A DNA stretch of 64,000 nt from IMG/VR virus record IMGVR_UViG_3300032046_000006, positions 32,001-96,000 of that record. The stretch is one strand, 5' to 3'. This document shows positions 5,805-48,009 of the stretch, in pieces. Position 1 is the first letter of the stretch. Each line of letters starts with the position of its first letter. The notes beneath the pieces are model-generated. The model did not search any database. It had not been told where the DNA came from and saw only the letters and a list, made by a program, of their open reading frames with translations. This stretch comes from a virus. A program made the translations under genes and the position numbers.

Positions 5805-6374
5805 ATGTTAAGTATATCTATGAAGTGGGATTCCGCTGAATTTCATCATTTTGTAACTGCTGTCGGTAATATTAATTTTGTACAAGCAGAAGCAGACCTC
5901 GCTAACTTGGCGGAAGATACAGTAAAAACCATGTGCGAAATCATAAATTCTTCTAGAAAAAGACCAGATAAAGGAACCCATAGATTAGAGAATTCCATAG
6001 ATTGGGAAGAACTTATAAATGACCCAGGAAAACATCTACAAATAGGTATAGCAAATATTGAAAAGATGACTAAAGAGGCTCCTTATTGGGAAGTGTTAGA
6101 CCAGGGAGGATATGTTCCGCCACAGAATATTGGTTATTTTACATCTGGTTCGGGATTATCTGGAGATAGAACGAAACCAGAAGCAGGAGGTTCGGGACAG
6201 ACATGGATTCATACTGGAGGAGAAGTAGGACAAAGATATTATCGTATGCAACCCTCGAAAGCAATTGAAGGCATTGACTATATTGGATTTTCATTACGTC
6301 ATCTTGATGAAGAATTTAAAAATAGATTAGAAACTCTTGGCATGAAAATTTTTGAAAATGTTGAAAAACTATGA
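5805..6374 (+). CDS. HK97 gp10-like tail completion/neck protein
   Basis: GTHRLENSI and APYWEVLDQGG resemble the gp10 TG.L..SI and YA..VE.G motifs. Confidence 0.6.
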   Translation: MLSISMKWDSAEFHHFVTAVGNINFVQAEADLANLAEDTVKTMCEIINSSRKRPDKGTHRLENSIDWEELINDPGKHLQIGIANIEKMTKEAPYWEVLDQGGYVPPQNIGYFTSGSGLSGDRTKPEAGGSGQTWIHTGGEVGQRYYRMQPSKAIEGIDYIGFSLRHLDEEFKNRLETLGMKIFENVEKL

Positions 6375-6391
6375 TAAGGAAGGAAAATTAA

Positions 6392-6883
6392 ATGGTTGTA
6401 AAAGAATATCAAAAACAATATTATCAAGAACATAAAGAAGAATTAAAAAAAAGAACTAAAAAATGGAGTCAGGAACATCAAAGAGAAATAGAAGAATATA
6501 GAGAAAAACATAAAAATCAAGCAAAGCAATATCGTTTAATCCATAAAAAAGAATTTAAAGAATATCGCCAGAGTCGCAAAGAAGAAATATATGAATATAA
6601 TAAAGAATATAATAAAGTCCATCCTTGGATGAGCCATTATAATGGTTCTAGGAGTAGATGTAATAATCCCAAAAATAATCATTATCATTCTTATGGTGGC
6701 AGAGGAATTAAATTTTTAATGACAAATAACGATTTCAGATATTTATGGTTTAGAGATAAAGCATTTGAAATGAAACAGGCATCTATAGATAGAATTGATA
6801 ATGATGGGAATTATGAATTAAATAATTGTAGATTTATTGAATTAATAAAAAATACAAAGAAAAAAATAGTGGAGAAAATCTAA
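6392..6883 (+). CDS. HNH-family homing endonuclease
   Basis: K/E/Y-rich repeats, then SRCNNPKN..YGGRGI...SIDRIDNDGNYE..NCRF. Confidence 0.85.
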   Translation: MVVKEYQKQYYQEHKEELKKRTKKWSQEHQREIEEYREKHKNQAKQYRLIHKKEFKEYRQSRKEEIYEYNKEYNKVHPWMSHYNGSRSRCNNPKNNHYHSYGGRGIKFLMTNNDFRYLWFRDKAFEMKQASIDRIDNDGNYELNNCRFIELIKNTKKKIVEKI

Positions 6884-31680: not shown

Positions 31681-32240
31681 TTTATTTTTTTTAATTCTAA
31701 AATAATAAAGGGTCTTCTTACTCCTGCACTAAAATTTTCGGCACATTCTAACGCATTTCTTACTATTTCTTTGCCCGACAGTTTTTTAGAATTAGTATAA
31801 ATAGACCCCAAAGCATAAGATTCCCCGCATCCGCATGAATCATAATTATCGTAGGTCATTGCCACTTGCAAATCGTCTACTATTTTATAAATTTTACTAT
31901 TATAACCAACTAAAAAGGTTCCTATTTCTTCTTGATTATCTTCAATTTTACTATATCCATTATCTTTTAAACATTTTCTTACTGCATCAATAAATTCTGT
32001 ACACATATATTCATAATCGCTGACTTTATCTTTATGAACAGGTATTTCTAATTTAAATCTCAATAACTGTCCCATTCTGAATGATGAAGTATATCCCATT
32101 AACATATTTTCTTTTTGAAATACTTTTACATCACTTCTAATTCTAATATCATGCCTTCCTACTCCTGCTGAGTCGCCTCCCATAAACATGTTTCCTTTAT
32201 TGTCTACATAACCAACAATACAAGTAGTTGTTGTAATCAT
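31674..32240 (-). CDS. HslV/proteasome-beta-like Ntn hydrolase
   Basis: N-terminal TTTTCIVG, GGDS, KVF, GCGESYALG. Confidence 0.7.
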   Translation of the reverse strand: MITTTTCIVGYVDNKGNMFMGGDSAGVGRHDIRIRSDVKVFQKENMLMGYTSSFRMGQLLRFKLEIPVHKDKVSDYEYMCTEFIDAVRKCLKDNGYSKIEDNQEEIGTFLVGYNSKIYKIVDDLQVAMTYDNYDSCGCGESYALGSIYTNSKKLSGKEIVRNALECAENFSAGVRRPFIILELKKIKC

Positions 32241-33716: not shown

Positions 33717-35263
33717 TCTTCCTCCCGAGTCCAATCTTCTTCTCTCATTACAAAGGTTTCTATTCCTGAAAGCATCTTAATTTTGTGTGCTACTTTTCCA
33801 AGAGTTCCTATTTGTTTATCCCCAATGTAAATACCTCTTTCTCCTGCCCAAGGATGTTTTCCACAAAGAATTATTCTATTATTTAATTTCATTATTCTCC
33901 TTTATTTTAATATGATAAAAAGTCCAATTCCTATCTCAAATATAGCCACATTTTGGCGAGGGCATCGGGTAAATTTCCCCAACAAGTTTCATTTTCTAAT
34001 GCCAATTTAACCATAACTTTATTACCATTTATTGATTTATAGTTTTCAACCTTAATTCCTACGGGTAACTCCTCTAAAATCTCTGTGGCAAGAGGGGCAG
34101 GCATACCTTGTCCATTATTTAATCCTTCTTCTATGTATTCTAATCCCCATACACCAAAAGAATTTTTTGTCCAACAAAACTCCGTTTCCTTCTTCCACCC
34201 TGCAATTTTTAACTGCTCAGCTAATTCAAGTGATACGCAATGTTTCTTCATAGTCTATTTAACCTCCTATTATAAATACCTTTTTGCGGTATTAATCAAA
34301 ATTTTCTTGGTCTTTAAAAGTTTGTTTAAGCATTATTCTTATCCTCCTCATCGCACCCATCTTCTTTTGTGCATATATTGCGATAACTTCTTTTATCGCC
34401 ATCATCATCTTCTACATAATCAAGATAAGAACAGTATTTGCATTTTTTTGGTATCATTAGTTTTCTCCTTTATTCTAAATTATTTAATCTTTCTATTTCT
34501 TTATTAAGATTTTCTATTTCTTCTAATGATTCACATAATGGGCAAAACCTACATTCATAACAAATTTCATCATGTGAATTATTTTTATCTCCAGAGCAAA
34601 TGGTCATTTTATTTACCTCCTAAAATTAATAATCCCGTTCCAATGAGCATCCCCCACCAATAAGTAATGGGTAATCCCAAAAACCAGCGAGAGTGCCATT
34701 CAATATTCTTTTTTAAAAATCTTTTAAAATTATAATGAGGATTAAAAACAAACCACATTGTATCTTCAATTACAAAAAACCAAGATACCAATCCAAAAAT
34801 AGTAGATTCCGTTTCCCAATTTCCCAATTCATTAATAAATAATCCATGAAAAACAGTAATAAAGAGTAACAACAAAAAAACATGGTAACCGGTCAATGCC
34901 TTGCCTCCTAATAATTTTCTAAAGAATACATTAATACGAAATGTAGGAAGTAATTTAGCCCATCCCCATTTTCCTTCAACCTGAATCTCCCATAAGGCAG
35001 TTATAATCGCTAAAATAATAGTAAAAATATAATATTTAATCATTCTAAAATAGCCAACTTTTATGGAGCATTACTCTTATGTTTTCTATGATTTGATGGA
35101 TTTCTTTTATTTCTATTCCATATTGTTGAATTAGTTCAAAAGATTTAATAGATAAATCATATATTTTGTAAGCTGCCCCAATCATAGCAAAAGTAAGAAC
35201 AATCATTAAACTTCGCTGGATAATTCCTATTATATAATAGATTTTTTGTAGTTTATCGTTCAT
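33710..35263 (-). other. Run of small hypothetical ORFs, including 33931-34251, membrane protein 34609-35043 and 35045-35263
   Basis: Co-oriented, tightly packed ORFs with SD sites. Confidence 0.55.
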
Positions 35264-36006
35264 TTTTGTAATCTTTGTTTTATTATTTCACAATACTTTT
35301 CTTCTTTTTCTATTAAAATAAATTTACGATTAAGGTTTTTACAAGCCACACCAGTAGTTCCGCTTCCTGCACAATTATCCAAAACTAAATCGCCTTCATT
35401 GGTATAAGTTTTTATTAGATATTCAAATAGTGCTACTGGTTTTTGGGTGGGGTGATTTTTCCCTTCAAATTCTGCTGTGGTAAATTTTTGTACACTTCTT
35501 GGTAATCTTAAACCATCTTTTGATTCTCTAATATGTTCGTGGTAATTTGGGATCTTATTTGTAGTTTCAGGATTATTATGTTTATCTTTTATGCCTCCTC
35601 TAAAATATGGTTTCCCTTGTGTTTTTTGCGGATTATACTTTGGTGTTCCTGTAGAAAATATAAGTATGTTCTCGTGTGCTTTTAATGGTTGTTTTTTCGC
35701 TAATAAAAAATTACTTGCTTTACTTTTTTCCCAAATCCATTCATACTTGAACATCTTAATATTACTCATCACCAAAGCACTTGTGAAAGGTTGAGAAGCA
35801 GTTAAAACTATCGCCCCATTAGCTTTAATAATTCTCTTGTATTGCTCCCATAATGGCTCAAAAGGAATAATCGTATCCCATTTACAAGCAGTAGTTCCAT
35901 AAGGTAAATCACATAAAATCATATCAATAGATTGGTCTGGTATTTGTGGCATTATTTCTAAGCAATCCCCATAAAATAATTTATTCGAAAAATCTTCTAT
36001 TATCAT
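35260..36006 (-). CDS. N6A/N4C DNA methyltransferase (beta class)
   Basis: DLPY, HPTQKP, LDNCAGSGTT. Confidence 0.93.
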   Translation of the reverse strand: MIIEDFSNKLFYGDCLEIMPQIPDQSIDMILCDLPYGTTACKWDTIIPFEPLWEQYKRIIKANGAIVLTASQPFTSALVMSNIKMFKYEWIWEKSKASNFLLAKKQPLKAHENILIFSTGTPKYNPQKTQGKPYFRGGIKDKHNNPETTNKIPNYHEHIRESKDGLRLPRSVQKFTTAEFEGKNHPTQKPVALFEYLIKTYTNEGDLVLDNCAGSGTTGVACKNLNRKFILIEKEEKYCEIIKQRLQK

Positions 36007-36007
36007 T

Positions 36008-37483
36008 TTATTTTATTGCACTCACTCCATTTTTGCGTTCTACATTAATATAATTTACTTCTTTTATTTCTTTATTTACATTTTGATAAATTATTATACT
36101 TTGAAATTGAAGGTTACTTATTATTTCTAATAATTTTTGGAAACTGATTTGGTCGCATGTATTTATTCCTTCATCGATGAGCAATAAACCTTCGGAAATT
36201 CCTTCATTCAATAAAATACCAATTTTAAATACCGTATTAATAAAGGTCTTTTGCCCCGAACTTAATTGTTCGTATTTTAATTCTTGCTTGCCATCATTTA
36301 CTTTTATGAAATCTTTTTCTATTGAAAATTTCACATTAATATTTATAGGTCTTAAAAGGTCATTTAATATAAATGAAAGATTATTCAACCATTCCATAAC
36401 ATAATAAGCGCTGAAAGAATCTAAAGTTTTAATAGAATCGTTGTAAAGAGTAACATCGCTTGCTGTAAATTTATACTCTTTAAAACGAAATGCCTCTTTT
36501 AGTTTCATTAAACATTCTTTTGTCTTTTGAATTTTGGATTGTATACCGGCATACACATTATTGTAATGGTTCATCAAATCTTCTTCTGATTGTAATAGAT
36601 TGTTGATTTCTTTTATTTCTGCATTTATAATTCCTATTTCTTTATTTTTTATAAGGTTCACTGTAGATAGTTGTTCACCAATTTGTGAACATTTAACATT
36701 TAGAATGGGACAAACTCCTCCATTGAGTTTCTTCTTGTCTTGTTCTTTAAAATAAATTATTTTATTTCTTGAAGAAATTTCTGATTTATAGTTACCTAAC
36801 AATTTGGATTGATTATCACAATCTTGTTTGGTAAGATTTAATTCTTCTTGTAATCTTAATAGTCCATTTTCAAGAATAGTCTGCCTTTTAGTAGATAAAT
36901 AAAAATGATATAATTTCTTATTTACATTAAAATTCTCTCGTTCCATTTTTTTGGCGAGTAAATTATTTCTTATTCCTATGAATTGGGTATTAACTAAACC
37001 CATTAAACTTTTTCTAAGAGAAACAATTCCTAATCCTAAAAGGTCAATCCCTTTATTTTGGTCTATCATGCGATAGGTACGGAATTTATTTAGGTCTTCG
37101 CCAATCAATTCATTTAACCACTTTTGGGCGATTGATGCGGTATTGAATTTATGTTCTCCTTCATCACTCCAGATTTGTAAATCAGAAGGAATCTTACGAA
37201 TAATTTTGTATTGTTTACCATTTTGTGAACAATGGAGTTCTATTGAACATTCTTTTTCCCCGATTTTTATTAAATCTTTCAAATTTATGCCAGTAACTTC
37301 TCCAAATAAACAAAATAAAATACTACTAACAATTGTGGATTTTCCCGACCCATTGCCCGAATAATCATTATTTAATTCTTGACTATCAAAATTAACCCCA
37401 TTGATGAGATTAGTCTTGGAGAAATTAATCTCGGCATCGGAGAACAATTGGAAATTTTTTAAAATTATTTTATTTATTATCAT
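36008..37483 (-). CDS. SbcC/Rad50/gp46-like ATPase
   Basis: LKNF, GNGSGKS, LSSGQ, LLIDE. Confidence 0.9.
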   Translation of the reverse strand: MIINKIILKNFQLFSDAEINFSKTNLINGVNFDSQELNNDYSGNGSGKSTIVSSILFCLFGEVTGINLKDLIKIGEKECSIELHCSQNGKQYKIIRKIPSDLQIWSDEGEHKFNTASIAQKWLNELIGEDLNKFRTYRMIDQNKGIDLLGLGIVSLRKSLMGLVNTQFIGIRNNLLAKKMERENFNVNKKLYHFYLSTKRQTILENGLLRLQEELNLTKQDCDNQSKLLGNYKSEISSRNKIIYFKEQDKKKLNGGVCPILNVKCSQIGEQLSTVNLIKNKEIGIINAEIKEINNLLQSEEDLMNHYNNVYAGIQSKIQKTKECLMKLKEAFRFKEYKFTASDVTLYNDSIKTLDSFSAYYVMEWLNNLSFILNDLLRPININVKFSIEKDFIKVNDGKQELKYEQLSSGQKTFINTVFKIGILLNEGISEGLLLIDEGINTCDQISFQKLLEIISNLQFQSIIIYQNVNKEIKEVNYINVERKNGVSAIK

Positions 37484-39942: not shown

Positions 39943-40452
39943 TTATTCATTTTTTCTTTCTACCGTACATATCGTATCATTATGTAATCTTCCATGGGAA
40001 ACTAACAATATTTCTATAATTTCAAATCCTCTATTTTTCCCCAATCCTATACTATTCCAACCAAAACTTATTGCTAGCCCCCCTACTTTAATCTTATCTG
40101 CTAAATAAGATTTTGTTTCACTATAAAATTTTGTAGTTGCCCATTTTTTATCAACTTTACAGCCAATTCCTTCATAACATTCCATTATTTGCCGTAGTGA
40201 ATACGGGGGGTCATATAATCCCCCAGTATAATTATTTCCTTCTAATTGTTTTAAAAATTCTATTGCTTCCAAATGAAATTTTGCCGGTGAATTGGGATTG
40301 AGGTCATTAGTGAATTCTGCCTTAGAATTATTTCCAGAAAAGGGGTCAATCCATCTTTTTCCATCGCCAACATACCTATTCACCAATTCTTTAATTGGTT
40401 TAATAGTAAAAGTCCATTTATTTGGCATTGCCCATACTCTATTTATTATCAT
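39943..40452 (-). CDS. Small adenine-specific DNA methyltransferase
   Basis: IDPFSG, NDLNP, YDPPYS. Confidence 0.85.
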   Translation of the reverse strand: MIINRVWAMPNKWTFTIKPIKELVNRYVGDGKRWIDPFSGNNSKAEFTNDLNPNSPAKFHLEAIEFLKQLEGNNYTGGLYDPPYSLRQIMECYEGIGCKVDKKWATTKFYSETKSYLADKIKVGGLAISFGWNSIGLGKNRGFEIIEILLVSHGRLHNDTICTVERKNE

Positions 40453-41373: not shown

Positions 41374-41952
41374 TTATAATTTTAATCCCGCAAGGGCAAG
41401 CAAAATCGCATCCGCAATATCCGAACTTTTGATTTCTTCTTCAACAATATTAGATATGAATTTCATAATTTCTTTTTTCTTTTGGTCAGTTGGGGTTCCT
41501 CTTGGCAATACAGAATGAAATCCAACTAATTTACGAGCAACTGTAGGAAGATAAAATTTTATCTCATCAAAAGAATCATAAAGTTCTGAATAAAAAATGC
41601 CTCCAAGACTTCTGAGATACCCAAAAGTTTCTGGACTCATTAAAAGAAAAGATTGTTCTAATACCAAAATAGATGGTGCTTTTATAGTTATTTGATTTTT
41701 ATAATCTCTAATTAAATTAAGGGCACTATCCATTGCTTGTTCGTATTTTTCTGATTTTTCCATTTGGTCGGCTATTTTTCTTGGAATTGTAGGCAATTTA
41801 AAAATAGAATAATCTATGATTGCCTTTTCCCCAAAAGTAGAAATAAGAGCCAAACCGGTAGTTGAAGCAGTATCAACGCCAAGTCCCATTACATTCTTAC
41901 GAAGTTTAAGCCCTAAATTCTTTTCTAATTTTTTAAGAGATAATTTAATCAT
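41374..41952 (-). CDS. RuvC-like Holliday junction resolvase
   Basis: LGVDTASTTG, VLEQ, DIADAI. Confidence 0.8.
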   Translation of the reverse strand: MIKLSLKKLEKNLGLKLRKNVMGLGVDTASTTGLALISTFGEKAIIDYSIFKLPTIPRKIADQMEKSEKYEQAMDSALNLIRDYKNQITIKAPSILVLEQSFLLMSPETFGYLRSLGGIFYSELYDSFDEIKFYLPTVARKLVGFHSVLPRGTPTDQKKKEIMKFISNIVEEEIKSSDIADAILLALAGLKL

Positions 41953-43301
41953 TTTTAGTATTTTTTATTCTTTCTTGTGCAATTTTTAAATAATCTAATG
42001 ATAATTCTATGCCAATAAATTTCCTACCTAATAATTTTGCAGCAACTCCAGTTGTGCCACTTCCTAAAAAACAATCTAAAACAGTATCTTCTTTTCTACT
42101 TCCTAAAGTAATAAGATAAGACATTAATTTTATTGGCTTAACTGTTGGATGGCAATTCTTAGAAGGAGCTTTTTCACTCCCGAATTTACCAGAAGCCGAA
42201 TTAACATCTTCTAAATAATCTCCTATACCACCCCCACCCCCAGTAGTTTGTTTTATTGATAAATTATCCAATCCTTTATTTTTTTCACTCTTACTTGCCT
42301 TTGGACAAATTAAAAAAGGAAAAGTATTACAATCTTCGGAAATATCATTTTCTTTAGCCCAAGCATCTAAATCAAAATAACGAGAAAAAGAACCAGAATC
42401 ATTATAAGTTTGCCCTGCTGGTTTGCCTGTAGATTTTTGCCAAATTCCACCAGAGGCAGATTTATCATCTTTAGATTTATTTGATGTTCTTTCTTTTCCA
42501 TCATTTAAAATATCATCAGATACTAATAAATTAGCAGGGAATCTTCCTTTTTCTGAACCAATTTCTACATTATCTTTATATCCATAATTTCTTTCTTCTG
42601 ATGTGGAATTTAAATTTCCTCTTGTTTGCGGTTTATATTTTTTCTCATAAGGAATTCTACAATCATCTAAATTAGTAATTCCTTTGCCATTTTTTAATGC
42701 TTGGTCTATGTAACTTTTTTCTGATAAAGGTTTCATTACTACAATTATTATTTCTACTGCTGGTTTTGGTTGAAAACCACCATAAAATCCATCAAGAGTT
42801 TTTGCTTCATCAGAAATGGGCAATCCATCTTCAAAAACTCTTGACATACTATTTTCTCCTTCTATATTACAATTATAACAACCAGAACCACTATTAGTTG
42901 CTTTGCCATCGGTTCTCGTAATACCTGTTCTTTTTAATCCTTTTCTTTTATCTATTGCTTTAGAAATGTTTATTGCTTTAGGAAAACCAGTCGCATAACA
43001 ATAATAAATTGATGTAAATCCTGTTTCAAATCCTGCTTCTTGTAAATTATAAATCATTCTTCCTAATACCTCTTGTCTTGGTGCGGACATTATAAAAGCA
43101 AATGCTCCTGGTTTCAATACTCTTAAACATTCTTTCCAAGTAGAAGAAGGAATAACTACTTTATCCCAATCCTTACCCATAAAAGAATAACCGTCAATAT
43201 GGTGGGTCAGTACAAATTAAATCAATAGAATTATCTTCTATTTTTTTTAATACTTCTGCACTGTCCCCTAAAAATAATTTGATTTTAGGTTCTTCCACCA
43301 T
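41945..43301 (-). CDS. Beta-class DNA methyltransferase interrupted after DPPY (frameshifted, recoded or pseudogene)
   Basis: 43301-43194 encodes MVEE...GDSAEVL...TDPPY-stop; +1 frame continues GYSFMGKDWD...HPTVKP...LDCFLGSGTT. Confidence 0.85.
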
Positions 43302-43769
43302 TTATTCCTCACCTCCTCTATAGAAAGAAGAAATAACCGCTCCGATTTGTTTCATTTGGTCAACAGTAAATCTTCTTCCTCTCGTCATATTACATATATG
43401 ACATGCAATGATTACATTATTTATGTGATGTCCATCTTGATGATTTATTCTATCAAATCCTAAATTTATATTATTGCCACAATAATAACATTTACCGGTT
43501 TTTAATAATTGACAAAATTCTCTTACATTTAATATTATTGACTTATAATTATGTTTTCTATCAAATGCTTTATATTTATAATATTTTCTTCTTCTTAAAA
43601 TATCGTCTACACCATAACCAGTTCCTAATCGCATTGGTGCTACCAAACCTAACATCATACCTTTTTCTTTATGCTTTCTTGAACAAAATACATTTTTACT
43701 TTTTATATGAGATTTATCTCTATAAAAAATTTTATCACAAATAGCACAGTTACATTTAATTTTAGGCAT
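43302..43769 (-). CDS. HNH endonuclease
   Basis: CYYCG..GFDRIN..DGH..NNV..CHICN. Confidence 0.85.
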   Translation of the reverse strand: MPKIKCNCAICDKIFYRDKSHIKSKNVFCSRKHKEKGMMLGLVAPMRLGTGYGVDDILRRRKYYKYKAFDRKHNYKSIILNVREFCQLLKTGKCYYCGNNINLGFDRINHQDGHHINNVIIACHICNMTRGRRFTVDQMKQIGAVISSFYRGGEE

Positions 43770-43812
43770 TACAATCTCCTAAATATAATTGTATTTGTTT
43801 ATTAGTATTCAT

Positions 43813-46800
43813 TTATTCCTCATAATAGGCTTTAAGTTCTTTTTTTAATAAATCATCATTCTCATAAACACTTTGTTCATTATTTTTCGGACATTCTTCT
43901 GGATTTTTAGATAAGCATTTACCTTCCTTTTCTTGCCCACATTTATTAAAATCACAAAGATTATCTTCTTCTATAAAATCTTTTTCAGTAAAAGTAGGTT
44001 GAGATTGAATTATTGATTCTTGCTCTTTAACTATTTTTAAAGCGATTTGAGCTTTAGTTTTTCGTTCTTTTTTAGGTTTAGTTATTATGCCAATTTTTTC
44101 TTTATTCCATTTAAGAGCATCAAAGATTTTTTCGGCAATGTCTAAAATATTCCTTTTAGTCATCATGTCATAATCTATTTCTATTATTTGGTTTTGGGTT
44201 TCTTCATCATAAGCGAGGACATTTTTTTCTATCATTGTATGGGATTCTTTTAATTCCTTTTTCCCAGTTTCTTTATTTTTACGCATTTGCTTGGCATGTC
44301 TTTCTGATGTGCCAAGTGATTTAACATAACAATAATAAAAAGTCTCTCCAGAATTTTTAGCAAATCCAAACAATTCTTTAGAATAATCCAAAGCTCTCAA
44401 AAAAATAGGAGGACTTTTATAATCTTGTGCATTATTTATTTTAGAAGGAAATCCGATTTCAATTACAGGAACTTTTATAATCGCTTCTTTTTGTGAAGCG
44501 ATAAATTCTATAATCGCTTCTTGAGATTCATTGTTAAGAACCTTTTCTATTAATTCTTCTTGAAACTTTTTCATAAAAATAGAACTATTTCGTCTTTTTA
44601 CTTCCACTCCTTTAATTTCTTTTTTGATTCCTGCTTTTGATTTTAGGTAACCAACATAATGACATAAAGCTACTACTAATAATCTATCAAAGATACCCTC
44701 ACAATCAAAAGAAATATCTAGGTTTGGCTTATTGTATTGTTTTGCCCAATCTTTTACTAAATCATTTAATAAATTAGTAGGGTCTTCTTTGGCTAATACA
44801 AATAAACTATCAGTATCTACATAAGTTACTTTCATTTGTTGTTCCTGTAATTTATTTTCTACAAAATGAAGTAAATCTCTTACTATACTGGTAATAGCAG
44901 AGGCTATCCGAACATCATATAAACGAAACGCTTTTAAAGCAGTTACCCCGAAGAGACTATTTGTGAGTGCCTTGGTCGCATCATATTTTATTTGTAAATC
45001 TTTTGCGTCTTCACTTTCTGGATTTAAAGATTTTAATTGTTTTTTTAATATGTCTTTTTTGGCGATTAATTTTCTTGCTATAATAGGTAATAAAGTATTT
45101 TGATTTTGTTTAACATAAATAGAATATTTTATTTCATTAGTTTCTCGGTCAGTTATGTCTATTTTTTGTTCATTTTTATTTTCAGTAAGATTGGAAATAT
45201 CTAAACAAAAATTAATAATAGTTTGGGGATAAGCACTACTCAAATCAAGTTTATAGACCTGCTCAAATCGGCCAAGTTCGGCTCTTCTATATGCTCCCTC
45301 AAATTCCTTACCTTCTTCTATTATAATATCTTCCGCATATTTTTTTGAAGGAAGAATTATACCGAGTTTTTTTGCTTCAGTTAAAAGCATTACATCAAGA
45401 ACTTTTGAATTTCCACTTAATACTATTCGTTCATTATGTCTTATCAAAAAATTATGATATTCGTTTTCTATACACCAAATTTTGCCTTCATATCGAATTT
45501 CTTTTTTAGCGTGATAACGAAATAATTTAAATGGATTTTTTACAATGTTTCCTTCATAATATATTCCTTCATTTTTAATTCTTTTATGTGTTCTAACATT
45601 CCATCCAGCTAAAATACATAATAATTGAAATTGATTGATTAATTCTTTGCTTTTAGAATAATAACAACCACTATTTCTGGATTGCCAATGCCCATCTCCT
45701 TTCATCATAGTTTCGATTAATAGTCTTTTTTGTTGAATAGATAATTCAAAAACAAAATTGGGTAATTCTTTCTTATTTCTCAACAATTGTTTATATAAAG
45801 AAGTATAGACTGCTTTAATACGAAAATTAATACAGTTATTATTTTTATGTATATATTTAGAATATCCTAAATTTTCTTGATTTAATAATTCTTCTATTTC
45901 ATTTGCTTCTTTGCCTTTATTTTGATAAATAGAAATAGCTTTACTACATTTCTCAAAATGCCCTTCAGAAATAATCCATCCAATAAGTTTAATTTGATTA
46001 TCTGTTAATTGATTGAATTTTCCTTCATAGCCCTCCGAACCGACAAAAAAATATCTATCATCCCTGTCGGGTATAGAATCTATTGTATTTTCTTCTAATT
46101 TTAGTGTATTTCGTTCAGGTCTGTTATAAGTCATTAAAAATTTATGATTAGGGGTAACGCAAAAATTAATTCGTTCATTTTGATAATTAATCATTTTACC
46201 TTTATAATTATAAATAAATAGATTTTTAATATTTGATACTTCTAATTGAAATGTTTTTGGATTCATCGAATAAACTTTATCTGATTTTTTTATTTCATTA
46301 TATTTTTTCCAACCATTTTTAGTAAGAATTTCTGTTTGTTCATCAAGACAATTCCATGTAATGTCTTCCCAAACACATTTTCCCATTCTACGAATTTCAT
46401 CATAATAAGTTATAATATTTTTTTCTTTTTCAATTCCTACCATATCTTCGATGTCTTCTTTATTTTTTTCCTTAATATCATCAGTAATTTGACTAAAATC
46501 TACTTTCTTTTTCGGAGGTTTCTTTAAATATTTTTGGGCAATATAATCTAAGGAATAAGATACTTCTTTATTATAAATTTTTTTAAACAAATCTAGATAA
46601 TCTAATATACTAATTCCTGATGGATAGGGAATATCCATTTCTTTTATTCCATAACGATATTTATTTATTGGGGAAATCAATTCGGCTAAATCTAAATTCC
46701 ATAATTTTTTTATACGAGCATATAAATAAGGATAATCGAATAAAATAAAATTCCAACCTAATAAAATATCTGGTTGTTCTTCTTTTATATACTTTACAAA

Positions 46801-47301
46801 TTCTTTTAATAATTCATCTTCGGCACATTCTGTTTTATCGATTCCTTCTCTTTTACCAAATTCATAATAATCTTTAATCCAAAAAGTTTTAATTTCTTTA
46901 GATAAAGAATTATAAATACTAATACTTGTTATTGGCTGATTAGGATAAAGATAATCGGGTACTCCTGTTTTTGTTTGAATTTCAATATCAATAAAAATAT
47001 ATTTGATAGGGGATTTAATAATTTCTCCTACCTTATCAATTAAATAACGTTTCGGGTATAAAATGTCTGCCTCATAAGAATTTTCATCTCTTTTGCGAGC
47101 AACTTCTGAAGGTAATTTACAGAATACTTTATTTACTTTTTTCCCATTAATAGTTCTAAAGATTCCTGTAGAAGATTCTTTGAAAAAATAAGGCATGAAA
47201 TTCTTATCCCTAAACTGAGATAATTGACCATCGGGTTGACGATTGAATAGGATTATCTCTCTGCCCGAATTACTGATATTTTGGATTGGCAAACTTAACA
47301 C
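43813..47301 (-). CDS. polB: Family B DNA polymerase containing an intein
   Basis: DIE exo I, GWN...FD exo II, DLSSAYP, K...NSLFG, YVDTDS, KGVE. Confidence 0.93.
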   Translation of the reverse strand: MLSLPIQNISNSGREIILFNRQPDGQLSQFRDKNFMPYFFKESSTGIFRTINGKKVNKVFCKLPSEVARKRDENSYEADILYPKRYLIDKVGEIIKSPIKYIFIDIEIQTKTGVPDYLYPNQPITSISIYNSLSKEIKTFWIKDYYEFGKREGIDKTECAEDELLKEFVKYIKEEQPDILLGWNFILFDYPYLYARIKKLWNLDLAELISPINKYRYGIKEMDIPYPSGISILDYLDLFKKIYNKEVSYSLDYIAQKYLKKPPKKKVDFSQITDDIKEKNKEDIEDMVGIEKEKNIITYYDEIRRMGKCVWEDITWNCLDEQTEILTKNGWKKYNEIKKSDKVYSMNPKTFQLEVSNIKNLFIYNYKGKMINYQNERINFCVTPNHKFLMTYNRPERNTLKLEENTIDSIPDRDDRYFFVGSEGYEGKFNQLTDNQIKLIGWIISEGHFEKCSKAISIYQNKGKEANEIEELLNQENLGYSKYIHKNNNCINFRIKAVYTSLYKQLLRNKKELPNFVFELSIQQKRLLIETMMKGDGHWQSRNSGCYYSKSKELINQFQLLCILAGWNVRTHKRIKNEGIYYEGNIVKNPFKLFRYHAKKEIRYEGKIWCIENEYHNFLIRHNERIVLSGNSKVLDVMLLTEAKKLGIILPSKKYAEDIIIEEGKEFEGAYRRAELGRFEQVYKLDLSSAYPQTIINFCLDISNLTENKNEQKIDITDRETNEIKYSIYVKQNQNTLLPIIARKLIAKKDILKKQLKSLNPESEDAKDLQIKYDATKALTNSLFGVTALKAFRLYDVRIASAITSIVRDLLHFVENKLQEQQMKVTYVDTDSLFVLAKEDPTNLLNDLVKDWAKQYNKPNLDISFDCEGIFDRLLVVALCHYVGYLKSKAGIKKEIKGVEVKRRNSSIFMKKFQEELIEKVLNNESQEAIIEFIASQKEAIIKVPVIEIGFPSKINNAQDYKSPPIFLRALDYSKELFGFAKNSGETFYYCYVKSLGTSERHAKQMRKNKETGKKELKESHTMIEKNVLAYDEETQNQIIEIDYDMMTKRNILDIAEKIFDALKWNKEKIGIITKPKKERKTKAQIALKIVKEQESIIQSQPTFTEKDFIEEDNLCDFNKCGQEKEGKCLSKNPEECPKNNEQSVYENDDLLKKELKAYYEE
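45409..46350 (-). mobile_element. Intein (314 aa) with LAGLIDADG endonuclease
   Basis: N|CLDEQTEILT..GW, VTPNH, LIGWIISEG, MMKGDG, IWCI, SGN|S. Confidence 0.92.
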
Positions 47302-48009
47302 AAATAAACTCCTTTGCTAATTTAATCATTTCTTTATATGTAAATAAATTAGATTTAATATAATTACATCTACAACAAGCCAATGCAATATTTTTGATAG
47401 TATATGGTTTATTATTATTTTTTCTATCTAAAGTTAGTTTATTAGAAATCATGGCTAACTGAGAATATTTTTTAAATTTTAATTGATATTCTTTTATTCC
47501 ACAATAAACACAAATTTTTTCTTGTTTATTAAACCAATATATGAATTGCTGTTTTGTAATTAAAACTTTTATATTTCTTCTTTTTGCTCTATAAGTAAAA
47601 GACCACCATTTTAATAACGCCTGATGTGAATTTTTATATTTATTTAATATTCTTTTACTTTTTAATGGATGTTTTTTTGCCCATTCTAAATTTCTTTTAT
47701 TGCATTCTTTTTTATGAGTTTGATAATAATGAGGAGCTTTCCTTGCCCATCTTTTATCAGATTCTTTTTCCCGCCTTGTCCCTTAGGCGGTGACGGTGGC
47801 GGACTTGATGGTTTTGCATTAACTCCACCCTTCTTCACCGTTCCCTCTTTTATCCTCGTTCTACTGGATCCTTTTGACATTCTCAACCTCCTTCCGCATT
47901 TACAAATTCGCCGAATTTGTTTAAAATATTCTTTTATTTCTTTTCGATGTTTTTTGTGATATATTCTATCGTATTTTTGTTTATCCTTTTTTCCTTTTAT
48001 TGAACTCAT
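47270..48009 (-). pseudogene. HNH endonuclease gene split by a 188-bp insertion
   Basis: Removing 47730-47917 yields a continuous 183-aa ORF ...KEYFKHYYQTHKKE...CVYCG...LTLDRKNN...CCRCN. Confidence 0.8.
47730..47917 (-). mobile_element. 188-bp GC-rich insert carrying an SD and the start of a Pro/Gly/Lys-rich mini-ORF (ATG 47880)
   Basis: About 47% GC by hand count, CA at both junctions, palindrome at one end, GGAGG SD. Confidence 0.65.

Follow-up and report, generated by a model that had tools for sequence, protein, structure and literature searches.

What is a stop codon with a change of frame doing at the catalytic motif of a phage methyltransferase gene whose two parts are otherwise intact? 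The question is raised by a 64,000-nucleotide (nt) stretch of viral DNA, hereafter the window (positions 32,001 to 96,000 of IMGVR_UViG_3300032046_000006; all coordinates below are in window numbering), which belongs to the record of a complete 105,887-bp virus with 97-bp terminal repeats and 30% G+C. On its minus strand, the DPPY of a DNA methyltransferase gene is followed by TGA-C, and GYSF-MGKDWD comes next in the +1 frame. Comparison with related loci makes it very probable that a homing cassette left this lesion as an immunity scar. The complete explanation, in which such a scar is combined with a methylase that is still produced by recoding, has in our judgment an even chance of being right.

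A four-nucleotide insert at motif IV

The N-terminal part of the gene occupies positions 43197 to 43301 (minus strand). It starts with an ATG at 43301, preceded by a strong Shine-Dalgarno (SD) sequence, and comprises 35 codons, the last four of which are GAC CCA CCA TAT (DPPY, 43208 to 43197). The insert follows at once, with TGA at 43196 to 43194 and C at 43193. The rest of the gene (41945 to 43192, minus strand) resumes in the +1 frame with GGT TAT TCT TTT (GYSF, 43192 to 43181) and the ATG of MGKDWD (Met41, at 43180), runs through the target recognition domain, HPTVKP and motif I, and stays open until a TAA at 41947 to 41945. This C part counts 411 amino acids (aa) from Met41, or 415 from the Gly codon. 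A single uninterrupted reading frame is thus broken by TGA plus one nucleotide directly 3' of DPPY; coordinates and translation confirm, on this point, what an earlier sequence-only reading of the locus had described.

The C part alone scores 97.9 bits against PF01555, and the joined reading 105.7 bits (cut-off 26.7); the protein also matches PHROG 67 (E = 1e-54). By these matches, the broken gene encodes a beta-class N6/N4 DNA methyltransferase. DPPY (motif IV) lies at residues 32 to 35 and FLGSGTTG (motif I) near the C end, an order colinear with that of full-length relatives. Among 5.8 billion proteins searched, thousands of relatives were found; P0003 (455 aa), the best of those that are intact, shares 71% identity with the joined reading over 98% of the latter. 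When 20 sequences are aligned (A1, the window and 19 relatives), the window protein keeps every invariant column, and Met41 is invariant across the family. Because these relatives read DPPY-GYSFMGKDWD without a gap, exactly 4 nt are extra in the window; the closest intact relative, locus L001, has TAT GGC TAT TCT at the insert site. The family motif DPPYG.SFMGK.WD, the 4 extra nucleotides and the integrity of both halves, all put forward in the sequence-only reading, are therefore correct. The site happens to be the most conserved DNA of the gene, namely the codons for DPPY-G-x-x-F-M-G-K. Two further intact methyltransferase genes are present on the same strand (35260 to 36012, 250 aa, PF01555-like; and 39943 to 40452, 169 aa, PHROG 11619), so that the phage encodes three methylases within about 8 kb.

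Several candidate explanations of the insert were rejected. An alternative genetic code does not fit, as TGA terminates 20 of the 137 long open reading frames (ORFs) of the phage and is thus an ordinary stop, and as reading it as sense meets a TAA after 7 codons. A suppressor or quadruplet tRNA is discarded as well, since the whole 105,887-bp genome contains no tRNA gene. TGAC repeats neither of its flanks, which rules against a 4-nt fill-in duplication; it is far too short for an intron, and being out of frame it is not an intein.

The same frame change after residue 35 was revealed by tblastn of the joined protein in three of 80 IMG/VR loci carrying the methyltransferase (L021, L041 and L060). 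Further alleles were sought in IMG/VR and metagenome contigs with the upstream HNH protein as query, and in IMG/VR and 185,579 species genomes with degenerate DNA patterns. In all, about 20 distinct alleles carry an insert at this site; they come from IMG/VR, JGI/ENA metagenomes and one metagenome-assembled genome (MAG) of the candidate phyla radiation. A count of stop plus frameshift after DPPY, proposed in the sequence-only reading, thus shows that the lesion is not unique to this genome: it is real and recurrent. The inserts are 3, 4, 7, 8, 9, 10, 12, 13 or 14 nt long, lie directly 3' of the Tyr codon or of the next Gly codon (DPPY or DPPYG), and nearly all start with or contain a stop codon. 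Three are in frame (L183, TAA only; L191 and L194, 9 and 12 nt with a stop). A 4-nt Tyr-stop-C class has seven members, with TGAC in the window and L173, TAGC in L147, L148, L174 and L177, and TAAC in L228. About 10 alleles of 8 to 14 nt form a Gly-stop-filler-Gly class, and duplicated Tyr codons surround the gap in L181 (TAT..TAT) and L154 (TAT..TAC).

Cellular genomes are almost devoid of the pattern, the scan of the 185,579 GTDB species genomes having given 35 chance matches and one true allele (L228, in a Kazan-division MAG), so that this is essentially a phage phenomenon. Among cultured phages, the top methyltransferase matches covering two coding sequences proved on inspection to be intact genes, and the HNH homologues of E. 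coli and Klebsiella phages (33 to 40% identity) are not next to such a methylase. One relative of 407 aa, which begins with MGKDWD (P0008), may be another broken allele; genes of broken alleles are annotated as truncated methylases (P0002, P0008).

The window rests on a single assembly, and a sequencing or assembly artefact has to be considered on that account. We regard it as very unlikely, because same-site inserts occur in unrelated contigs and the site is not a homopolymer: an insertion of 4 nt is at stake, the identical TGAC stands at the identical site in the unrelated contig L173, TAGC or TAAC is found there in five others from other samples, and the insert is linked to the HNH gene and relic start described below.

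A probable homing endonuclease cassette inside the gene

Immediately 5' of the methyltransferase N part lies a gene (43302 to 43769, minus strand) for a 155-aa HNH (His-Me finger) endonuclease, presumed to be a homing enzyme, which matches PHROG 1271 ('HNH endonuclease', E = 3e-9) and PHROG 1035 ('endonuclease VII', E = 2e-8). No Pfam match was obtained for this protein, which therefore represents a divergent subfamily. It keeps all 15 columns that are invariant in 12 homologues (alignment A4), including the CxxC pairs, D106-R-I, H114, N118 and N127. Its TAA directly abuts the ATG of the methyltransferase N part, whose SD sequence, GGAGGTGA, is found just 5' of that ATG.

How the gene came to be arranged in this way is suggested by L001, where the same intein-containing polB (its end is 83% identical in nucleotides to that of the window) is followed directly by an intact methyltransferase gene, with neither HNH nor insert. 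Window positions 43868 to 43769 align to L001 positions 5934 to 6029, that is, the end of polB and the first 14 or so codons of the intact methyltransferase. Blastn and pairwise comparison with L001 thereby uncover, in the window, a relic of the original start of the resident gene (43762 to 43812, minus strand; 16 codons, then TAA). The relic occupies the 51 nt 3' of the polB stop, overlaps the HNH start codon, and encodes the first 14 residues of an L001-like methyltransferase. The same L001 start codons align a second time, to the present N part of the window, which is a spare 5' end: its first 15 codons have diverged from L001 and the remainder is close to it. From the relic start and this second match it follows that the original gene was interrupted by a block made of the HNH gene, the new SD, the ATG and about 15 codons. 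The 4-nt insert is found 60 nt beyond this block, and the segment from 43769 to 43193 has the layout of a bypass cassette, with an HNH gene, an N-terminal piece, a gap at the 3' junction and a stop right after the last codon. These points had escaped the sequence-only reading, in which the HNH gene was not placed inside the original gene, the 35 codons were not recognized as a spare copy, and the lesion was not seen as a recurrent class.

Linkage of the insert to the endonuclease extends to other loci. Homologous HNH genes (37 to 52% identity) stand directly 5' of the broken methyltransferase in L021, L041 (with L083, L085, L086 and L165), L147, L148, L151 and L154, and among the 80 loci mentioned above the family occurs in only two, L021 and L041, both of them broken. 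No HNH-linked methyltransferase has the plain DPPY-G-x-x-FMG sequence: each carries an insert, a loop longer by 13 aa (L081, L149, L150, L152) or FMS (L082). The plain target sequence is present in 64 distinct loci without HNH. In L147, a relic N fragment ends exactly at DPP and is followed by the HNH gene, a second N fragment, TAGC and the resumed gene; the whole element there occupies the site between DPP and Y, and the mini-insert is the element's 3' end. Relic gene starts upstream of HNH are seen in the window, L147 and L157. Finally, around the 10-nt insert that they have in common, L060, which has no HNH, matches L041 without a single difference (100% identity) over about 45 nt on the 5' side and about 190 nt on the 3' side; farther out, the two sequences diverge. 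This tract is what would be expected from a double-strand break at the site, repaired off an insert-bearing donor.

We therefore hold with considerable confidence that TGAC represents the 3' immunity scar of a mobile homing-endonuclease cassette lodged in the methyltransferase gene, similar to T4 MobA/gene 60. Among the options raised in the sequence-only reading, an insert shielding the allele from the adjacent HNH gene, as in T4, is the one that comparison supports best, through the HNH linkage, the presence/absence polymorphism between the window and L001, the relic gene starts and the conversion tract shared by L041 and L060. The cassette would comprise the HNH gene and a spare copy of the first 35 codons of the methyltransferase, ending in TGAC. 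By destroying the endonuclease target, the insert would render the carrier genome immune; in a mixed infection, the HNH enzyme would cut intact alleles such as that of L001, and repair would copy either the cassette or the insert alone. A point that weighs against this reading is that in many alleles with a gap, no member of this HNH family is found in the vicinity.

The methylase gene is also the seat of related events in other genomes. In L177 (5642 to 7488, minus strand), the endonuclease associated with a TAGC allele is of another family, PF13392 (HNH_3), and is joined in frame with a relic methylase start; a second HNH-like ORF (6223 to 6720) lies in another frame inside the methylase variable region. 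In L154 (1189 to 1791, plus strand), the C part of the broken methylase also contains an intein-like insertion (CLSEDTEILT...); judging from these two features, the gene has been struck by at least two kinds of selfish element. In L157 (2198 to 2938, plus strand), an HNH of the family comes after a relic N fragment of the methylase, which breaks off immediately ahead of DPPY; no C part follows, and the methylase was apparently lost after the invasion. In the group of 10-nt alleles, the HNH ORF of L041 (5377 to 6090, plus strand) runs in frame into the N fragment, which predicts a 237-aa fusion; the two are separate in L021 and L151.

Possible decoding of the interrupted gene

Is the methyltransferase still made? 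We think it probably is, because the cassette supplies its own ribosome-binding site and N-terminal piece. The leading route to a full-length enzyme would be a +1 shift or a 4-nt hop at UAU-UGA-C, and we consider it equally likely that the full-length methylase is or is not produced in this way. A fraction of the ribosomes would pause with peptidyl-tRNA-Tyr on UAU and UGA-C, a poor terminator, in the A site. Through a +1 shift, GAC would be read next, giving DPPY-D-GYSF with one extra Asp; through a 4-nt hop, tRNA-Tyr would re-pair on GAC at two of three positions (2 and 3), giving the wild-type DPPY-GYSF. As the loop 3' of DPPY accommodates 13 to 28 extra residues in relatives, either product could be active. 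Recoding would then be a low-level compensation for a 'savior' indel, with no elaborate signal.

Two sorts of observations point to decoding. The first is that coding capacity is conserved beyond the insert. The C part of the window has its 415 open codons and all family-invariant residues, and in the window subfamily most broken alleles with enough sequence retain a full C part through motif I. Full-length C parts are also kept in L173, L176, L181, L183 and L228, which lack HNH. Among the seven 4-nt alleles, the flanks of the insert have proportions of synonymous differences (pS) of 0.77 and 0.72, which are saturated, and proportions of non-synonymous differences (pN) of 0.30 and 0.18; from the insert to Met41, Gly and Phe are kept and their codons differ at third positions only.

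These observations bear directly on the possibility that the gene is dead or dying, the insert protecting the cassette and killing the methyltransferase, a loss tolerated thanks to the other methylases, with the gene looking intact because invasion was recent. The intact HNH suggests a young element, two other methyltransferase genes are present, the window allele has no recoding stimulators, motif I is in frame in only 12 of the 22 alleles with a natural end, and decayed or lost examples exist (L174, L195, L157 and, doubtfully, L147). However, a spare and well-conserved N piece with its own SD would be pointless in a dying gene, and the 4-nt class persists in lineages where its flanks are synonymously saturated yet constrained at non-synonymous sites, as do full-length C parts in the five HNH-less alleles. 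The stop, moreover, is always kept, although any insert would give immunity. We therefore tend to disfavor decay, and rate it as rather unlikely.

The second sort of observation concerns the insert itself and its surroundings. In all seven 4-nt alleles with a stop in the frame of the N part, the sequence is T-stop-C, and all three stops are used; the Tyr codon before the insert is TAT in 10 of 10 alleles of the short class, against 32 TAT and 18 TAC in intact genes. At the real gene ends of the phage, a stop followed by C is rare, occurring in 6 of 137 cases, TGAC once. In many relatives the gap is flanked by wobble-matched codons that could serve for take-off and landing: GGN-stop-filler-GGN in about 10 alleles, TAT..TAT in L181 and TAT..TAC in L154. 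The Gly-stop-Gly class has in addition a hairpin 5' of the gap, the 3' arm of which is formed by the Pro-Pro-Tyr-Gly codons. The z-score of its minimum free energy (MFE) averages -3.3 in this class versus -0.4 in 64 intact genes, and upstream structure is present also in L174 and L195. These MFE z-scores are a better measure than a fixed-register pair count (0.66 versus 0.46 to 0.47 paired), which is only modestly informative because the register of the hairpin differs between subtypes.

A peculiarity of this hairpin is found in the GC-rich Gly-stop-Gly alleles L179, L187, L189, L191, L192, L194 and L180, where the nearly invariant Asp of S-V-D is replaced by Gly (GGG or GGA). The substituted codon pairs with the Pro codons in the hairpin, and several of these alleles have short C-part ORFs. 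Either RNA structure has been selected at the cost of a conserved residue, or the constraint on the protein has been relaxed.

Several points weigh against recoding of the window allele. It has no hairpin (z of -0.4 over 121 nt and +0.1 over 58 nt) and no matched landing codon, since in UAU-UGAC-GGU a landing could take place on GAC alone, where two of the three positions match. No internal SD is found in ACTGACCCACCA, and UAU re-pairs badly on AUU; both objections had been raised in the sequence-only reading and are upheld. Decay has occurred in other alleles, with a further frameshift in L174, premature ends in L195 and perhaps L147, and loss of the C part in L157. With two other intact methyltransferase genes, the broken one might be dispensable, and as the HNH is intact the invasion may be recent, in which case an open C part is a weak sign of selection. 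The conservation of the flanks could likewise be a legacy of recently invaded functional genes, and the TAT and T-stop-C statistics count related alleles as independent.

A more specific form of +1 shift is the autoregulatory frameshift of prfB, the gene for release factor 2 (RF2), which takes place at CUU-UGA-C with an internal SD 3 nt upstream and is subject to RF2 feedback. The sequence-only reading had envisaged a shift or hop tying methylase output to RF2 availability. Whereas a shift or hop is retained here as the leading route, coupling to RF2 is not supported. The window does share with prfB an in-frame UGA followed by C, with GAC as the +1 codon and a +1 frame open across the site. 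UGA-C is nevertheless the only prfB-type feature found: the P site holds no shift-prone codon, UAU cannot re-pair on AUU, the internal SD is lacking, and there is no link to release-factor genes. Moreover, the homologous 4-nt alleles use TAG-C (four) or TAA-C (one), stops that are read by RF1. We hold a prfB-like control to be extremely improbable. A universal +1 frameshift is excluded for the inserts as a whole, as the +1 frame of L021 is closed by a TAA, the C part of L151 lies in +2, and in three alleles the insert keeps the frame. A hop from Tyr to Tyr (from TAT to the TAT of GYSF) is not favored either, because it deletes two residues and is impossible in the other 4-nt alleles, which read G-L/I-x-F.

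Alternatively, the enzyme may be made in pieces: a 35-aa N peptide would be released at the TGA, translation would re-initiate at the Met41 ATG, 14 nt downstream, and the two polypeptides would assemble. Met41 is invariant and every insert lies about 12 to 26 nt upstream of it. Insert lengths fall in all three frames (3, 8, 9, 12; 4, 7, 10, 13), so that a split requires no fixed frame relation. In L154 the N frame runs to a TAA overlapping the ATG, in L041 an ATG overlaps the TGA, and in L151 a TTG does. Working phage enzymes split by homing endonucleases are documented, such as Aeh1 NrdA/mobE (PMC3045599) and T4 gp39/gp60. Against a split enzyme, no SD precedes Met41 in the window, though strong SDs are used elsewhere in the phage. 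The stretch of four codons from the insert to Met41 is in frame and its Gly and Phe vary at third positions only, which is unexpected for an untranslated spacer. The matched codons flanking the gaps and the conserved C after the stop are left unexplained, and both the central beta-4 strand and the catalytic loop would need to be provided in trans by a piece of 35 aa. We consider this scenario distinctly unlikely.

Returning to recoding, we tentatively propose, as something a little less likely than its converse, that UAU-stop-C is a minimal, structure-free recoding signal in homing cassettes, which by a 4-nt hop or a +1 shift would rebuild the wild-type catalytic loop. Together with the sister Gly-stop-Gly and Tyr-stop-Tyr gaps of 3 to 14 nt, it would form a natural series of short stop-hops, the first of its kind, and endonuclease-linked bypassing would have arisen a second time, after T4 gene 60 and in a different gene.

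Relation to known systems and neighboring elements

To our knowledge, T4 gene 60 stood alone for decades as a well-studied example in which a translational gap accompanies a homing endonuclease. A full-text literature search brought up no account of methyltransferase genes with an endonuclease-linked gap. MobA/gene 60 is a mobile cassette made of an HNH homing endonuclease and a 50-nt translational bypass (bioRxiv 10.1101/2022.08.31.505936). The window resembles it in several respects: the interrupted gene is preceded by an HNH gene and receives a new N-terminal coding piece from the element; at the 3' junction of the element, beside invariant residues, there is a non-coding gap with a stop directly after the last decoded codon; and alleles with the gap but without an active HNH exist, the gap being presumed to confer immunity to cleavage. 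On the other hand, the target is a DNA methyltransferase and not a topoisomerase, the HNH protein is much smaller (155 aa), and the N piece duplicates the start of the host gene itself instead of adding a novel extension. The gap has 4 nt instead of 50, with neither matched landing codon nor take-off stem-loop nor mini-SD, and the hop is here a prediction from sequence, unlike the bypass of gene 60.

The Aeromonas phage Aeh1 provides another parallel, its nrdA-a/mobE/nrdA-b arrangement being one in which a free-standing homing endonuclease splits an enzyme gene (PMC3045599). In both cases the endonuclease disrupts an enzyme gene at or near the active site, and in Aeh1 enzyme function is retained. 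There, the endonuclease gene is located between two fragments that each have their own start signals, whereas in the window it precedes both pieces, the break amounts to no more than 4 nt, and the downstream fragment has no SD ahead of its Met41 ATG.

As to short hops, stop-hops onto a similar codon occur in E. coli constructs, but no natural in-frame ones are known and utilized bypassing is very rare (review PMC5009743). The same review describes the 'savior' indel, which the window would match in that an indel that rescues the genome is offset by inefficient recoding. The differences are that the threat would here be a homing endonuclease, and that the indel recurs in many lineages.

The evolutionary logic of T4 gene 60 would thus recur in a different gene and with a different, small HNH. 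The alleles form a natural series of very short gaps, of 3 to 14 nt, with all three stops, some having hairpins or matched codons and others not. Should the gaps be decoded, this series would amount to a ready-made mutational scan of the minimal needs for hopping or +1 shifting. If they are not, selfish endonucleases repeatedly split or kill phage methyltransferases at their catalytic motif, an outcome of relevance to phage anti-restriction strategies and to gene calling.

Candidate mobile elements are also seen next to the methyltransferase locus. The adjacent gene for a family-B DNA polymerase (polB, 43813 to 47301, minus strand) contains an intein-like insertion, with a Hint-type CLDEQTE... 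start, a LAGLIDADG-like block and a ...SGNS end, and the insertion is also found in polB of L001. Directly upstream of polB, a distant paralogue of the HNH family (47270 to 47782, minus strand) shows a local match to the protein encoded at 43769 to 43302 (E = 3e-6), with the conserved Gly-His of the family replaced by Pro-Tyr. At the place of this paralogue, L001 has a response-regulator-like ORF, which makes it another presence/absence polymorphism.

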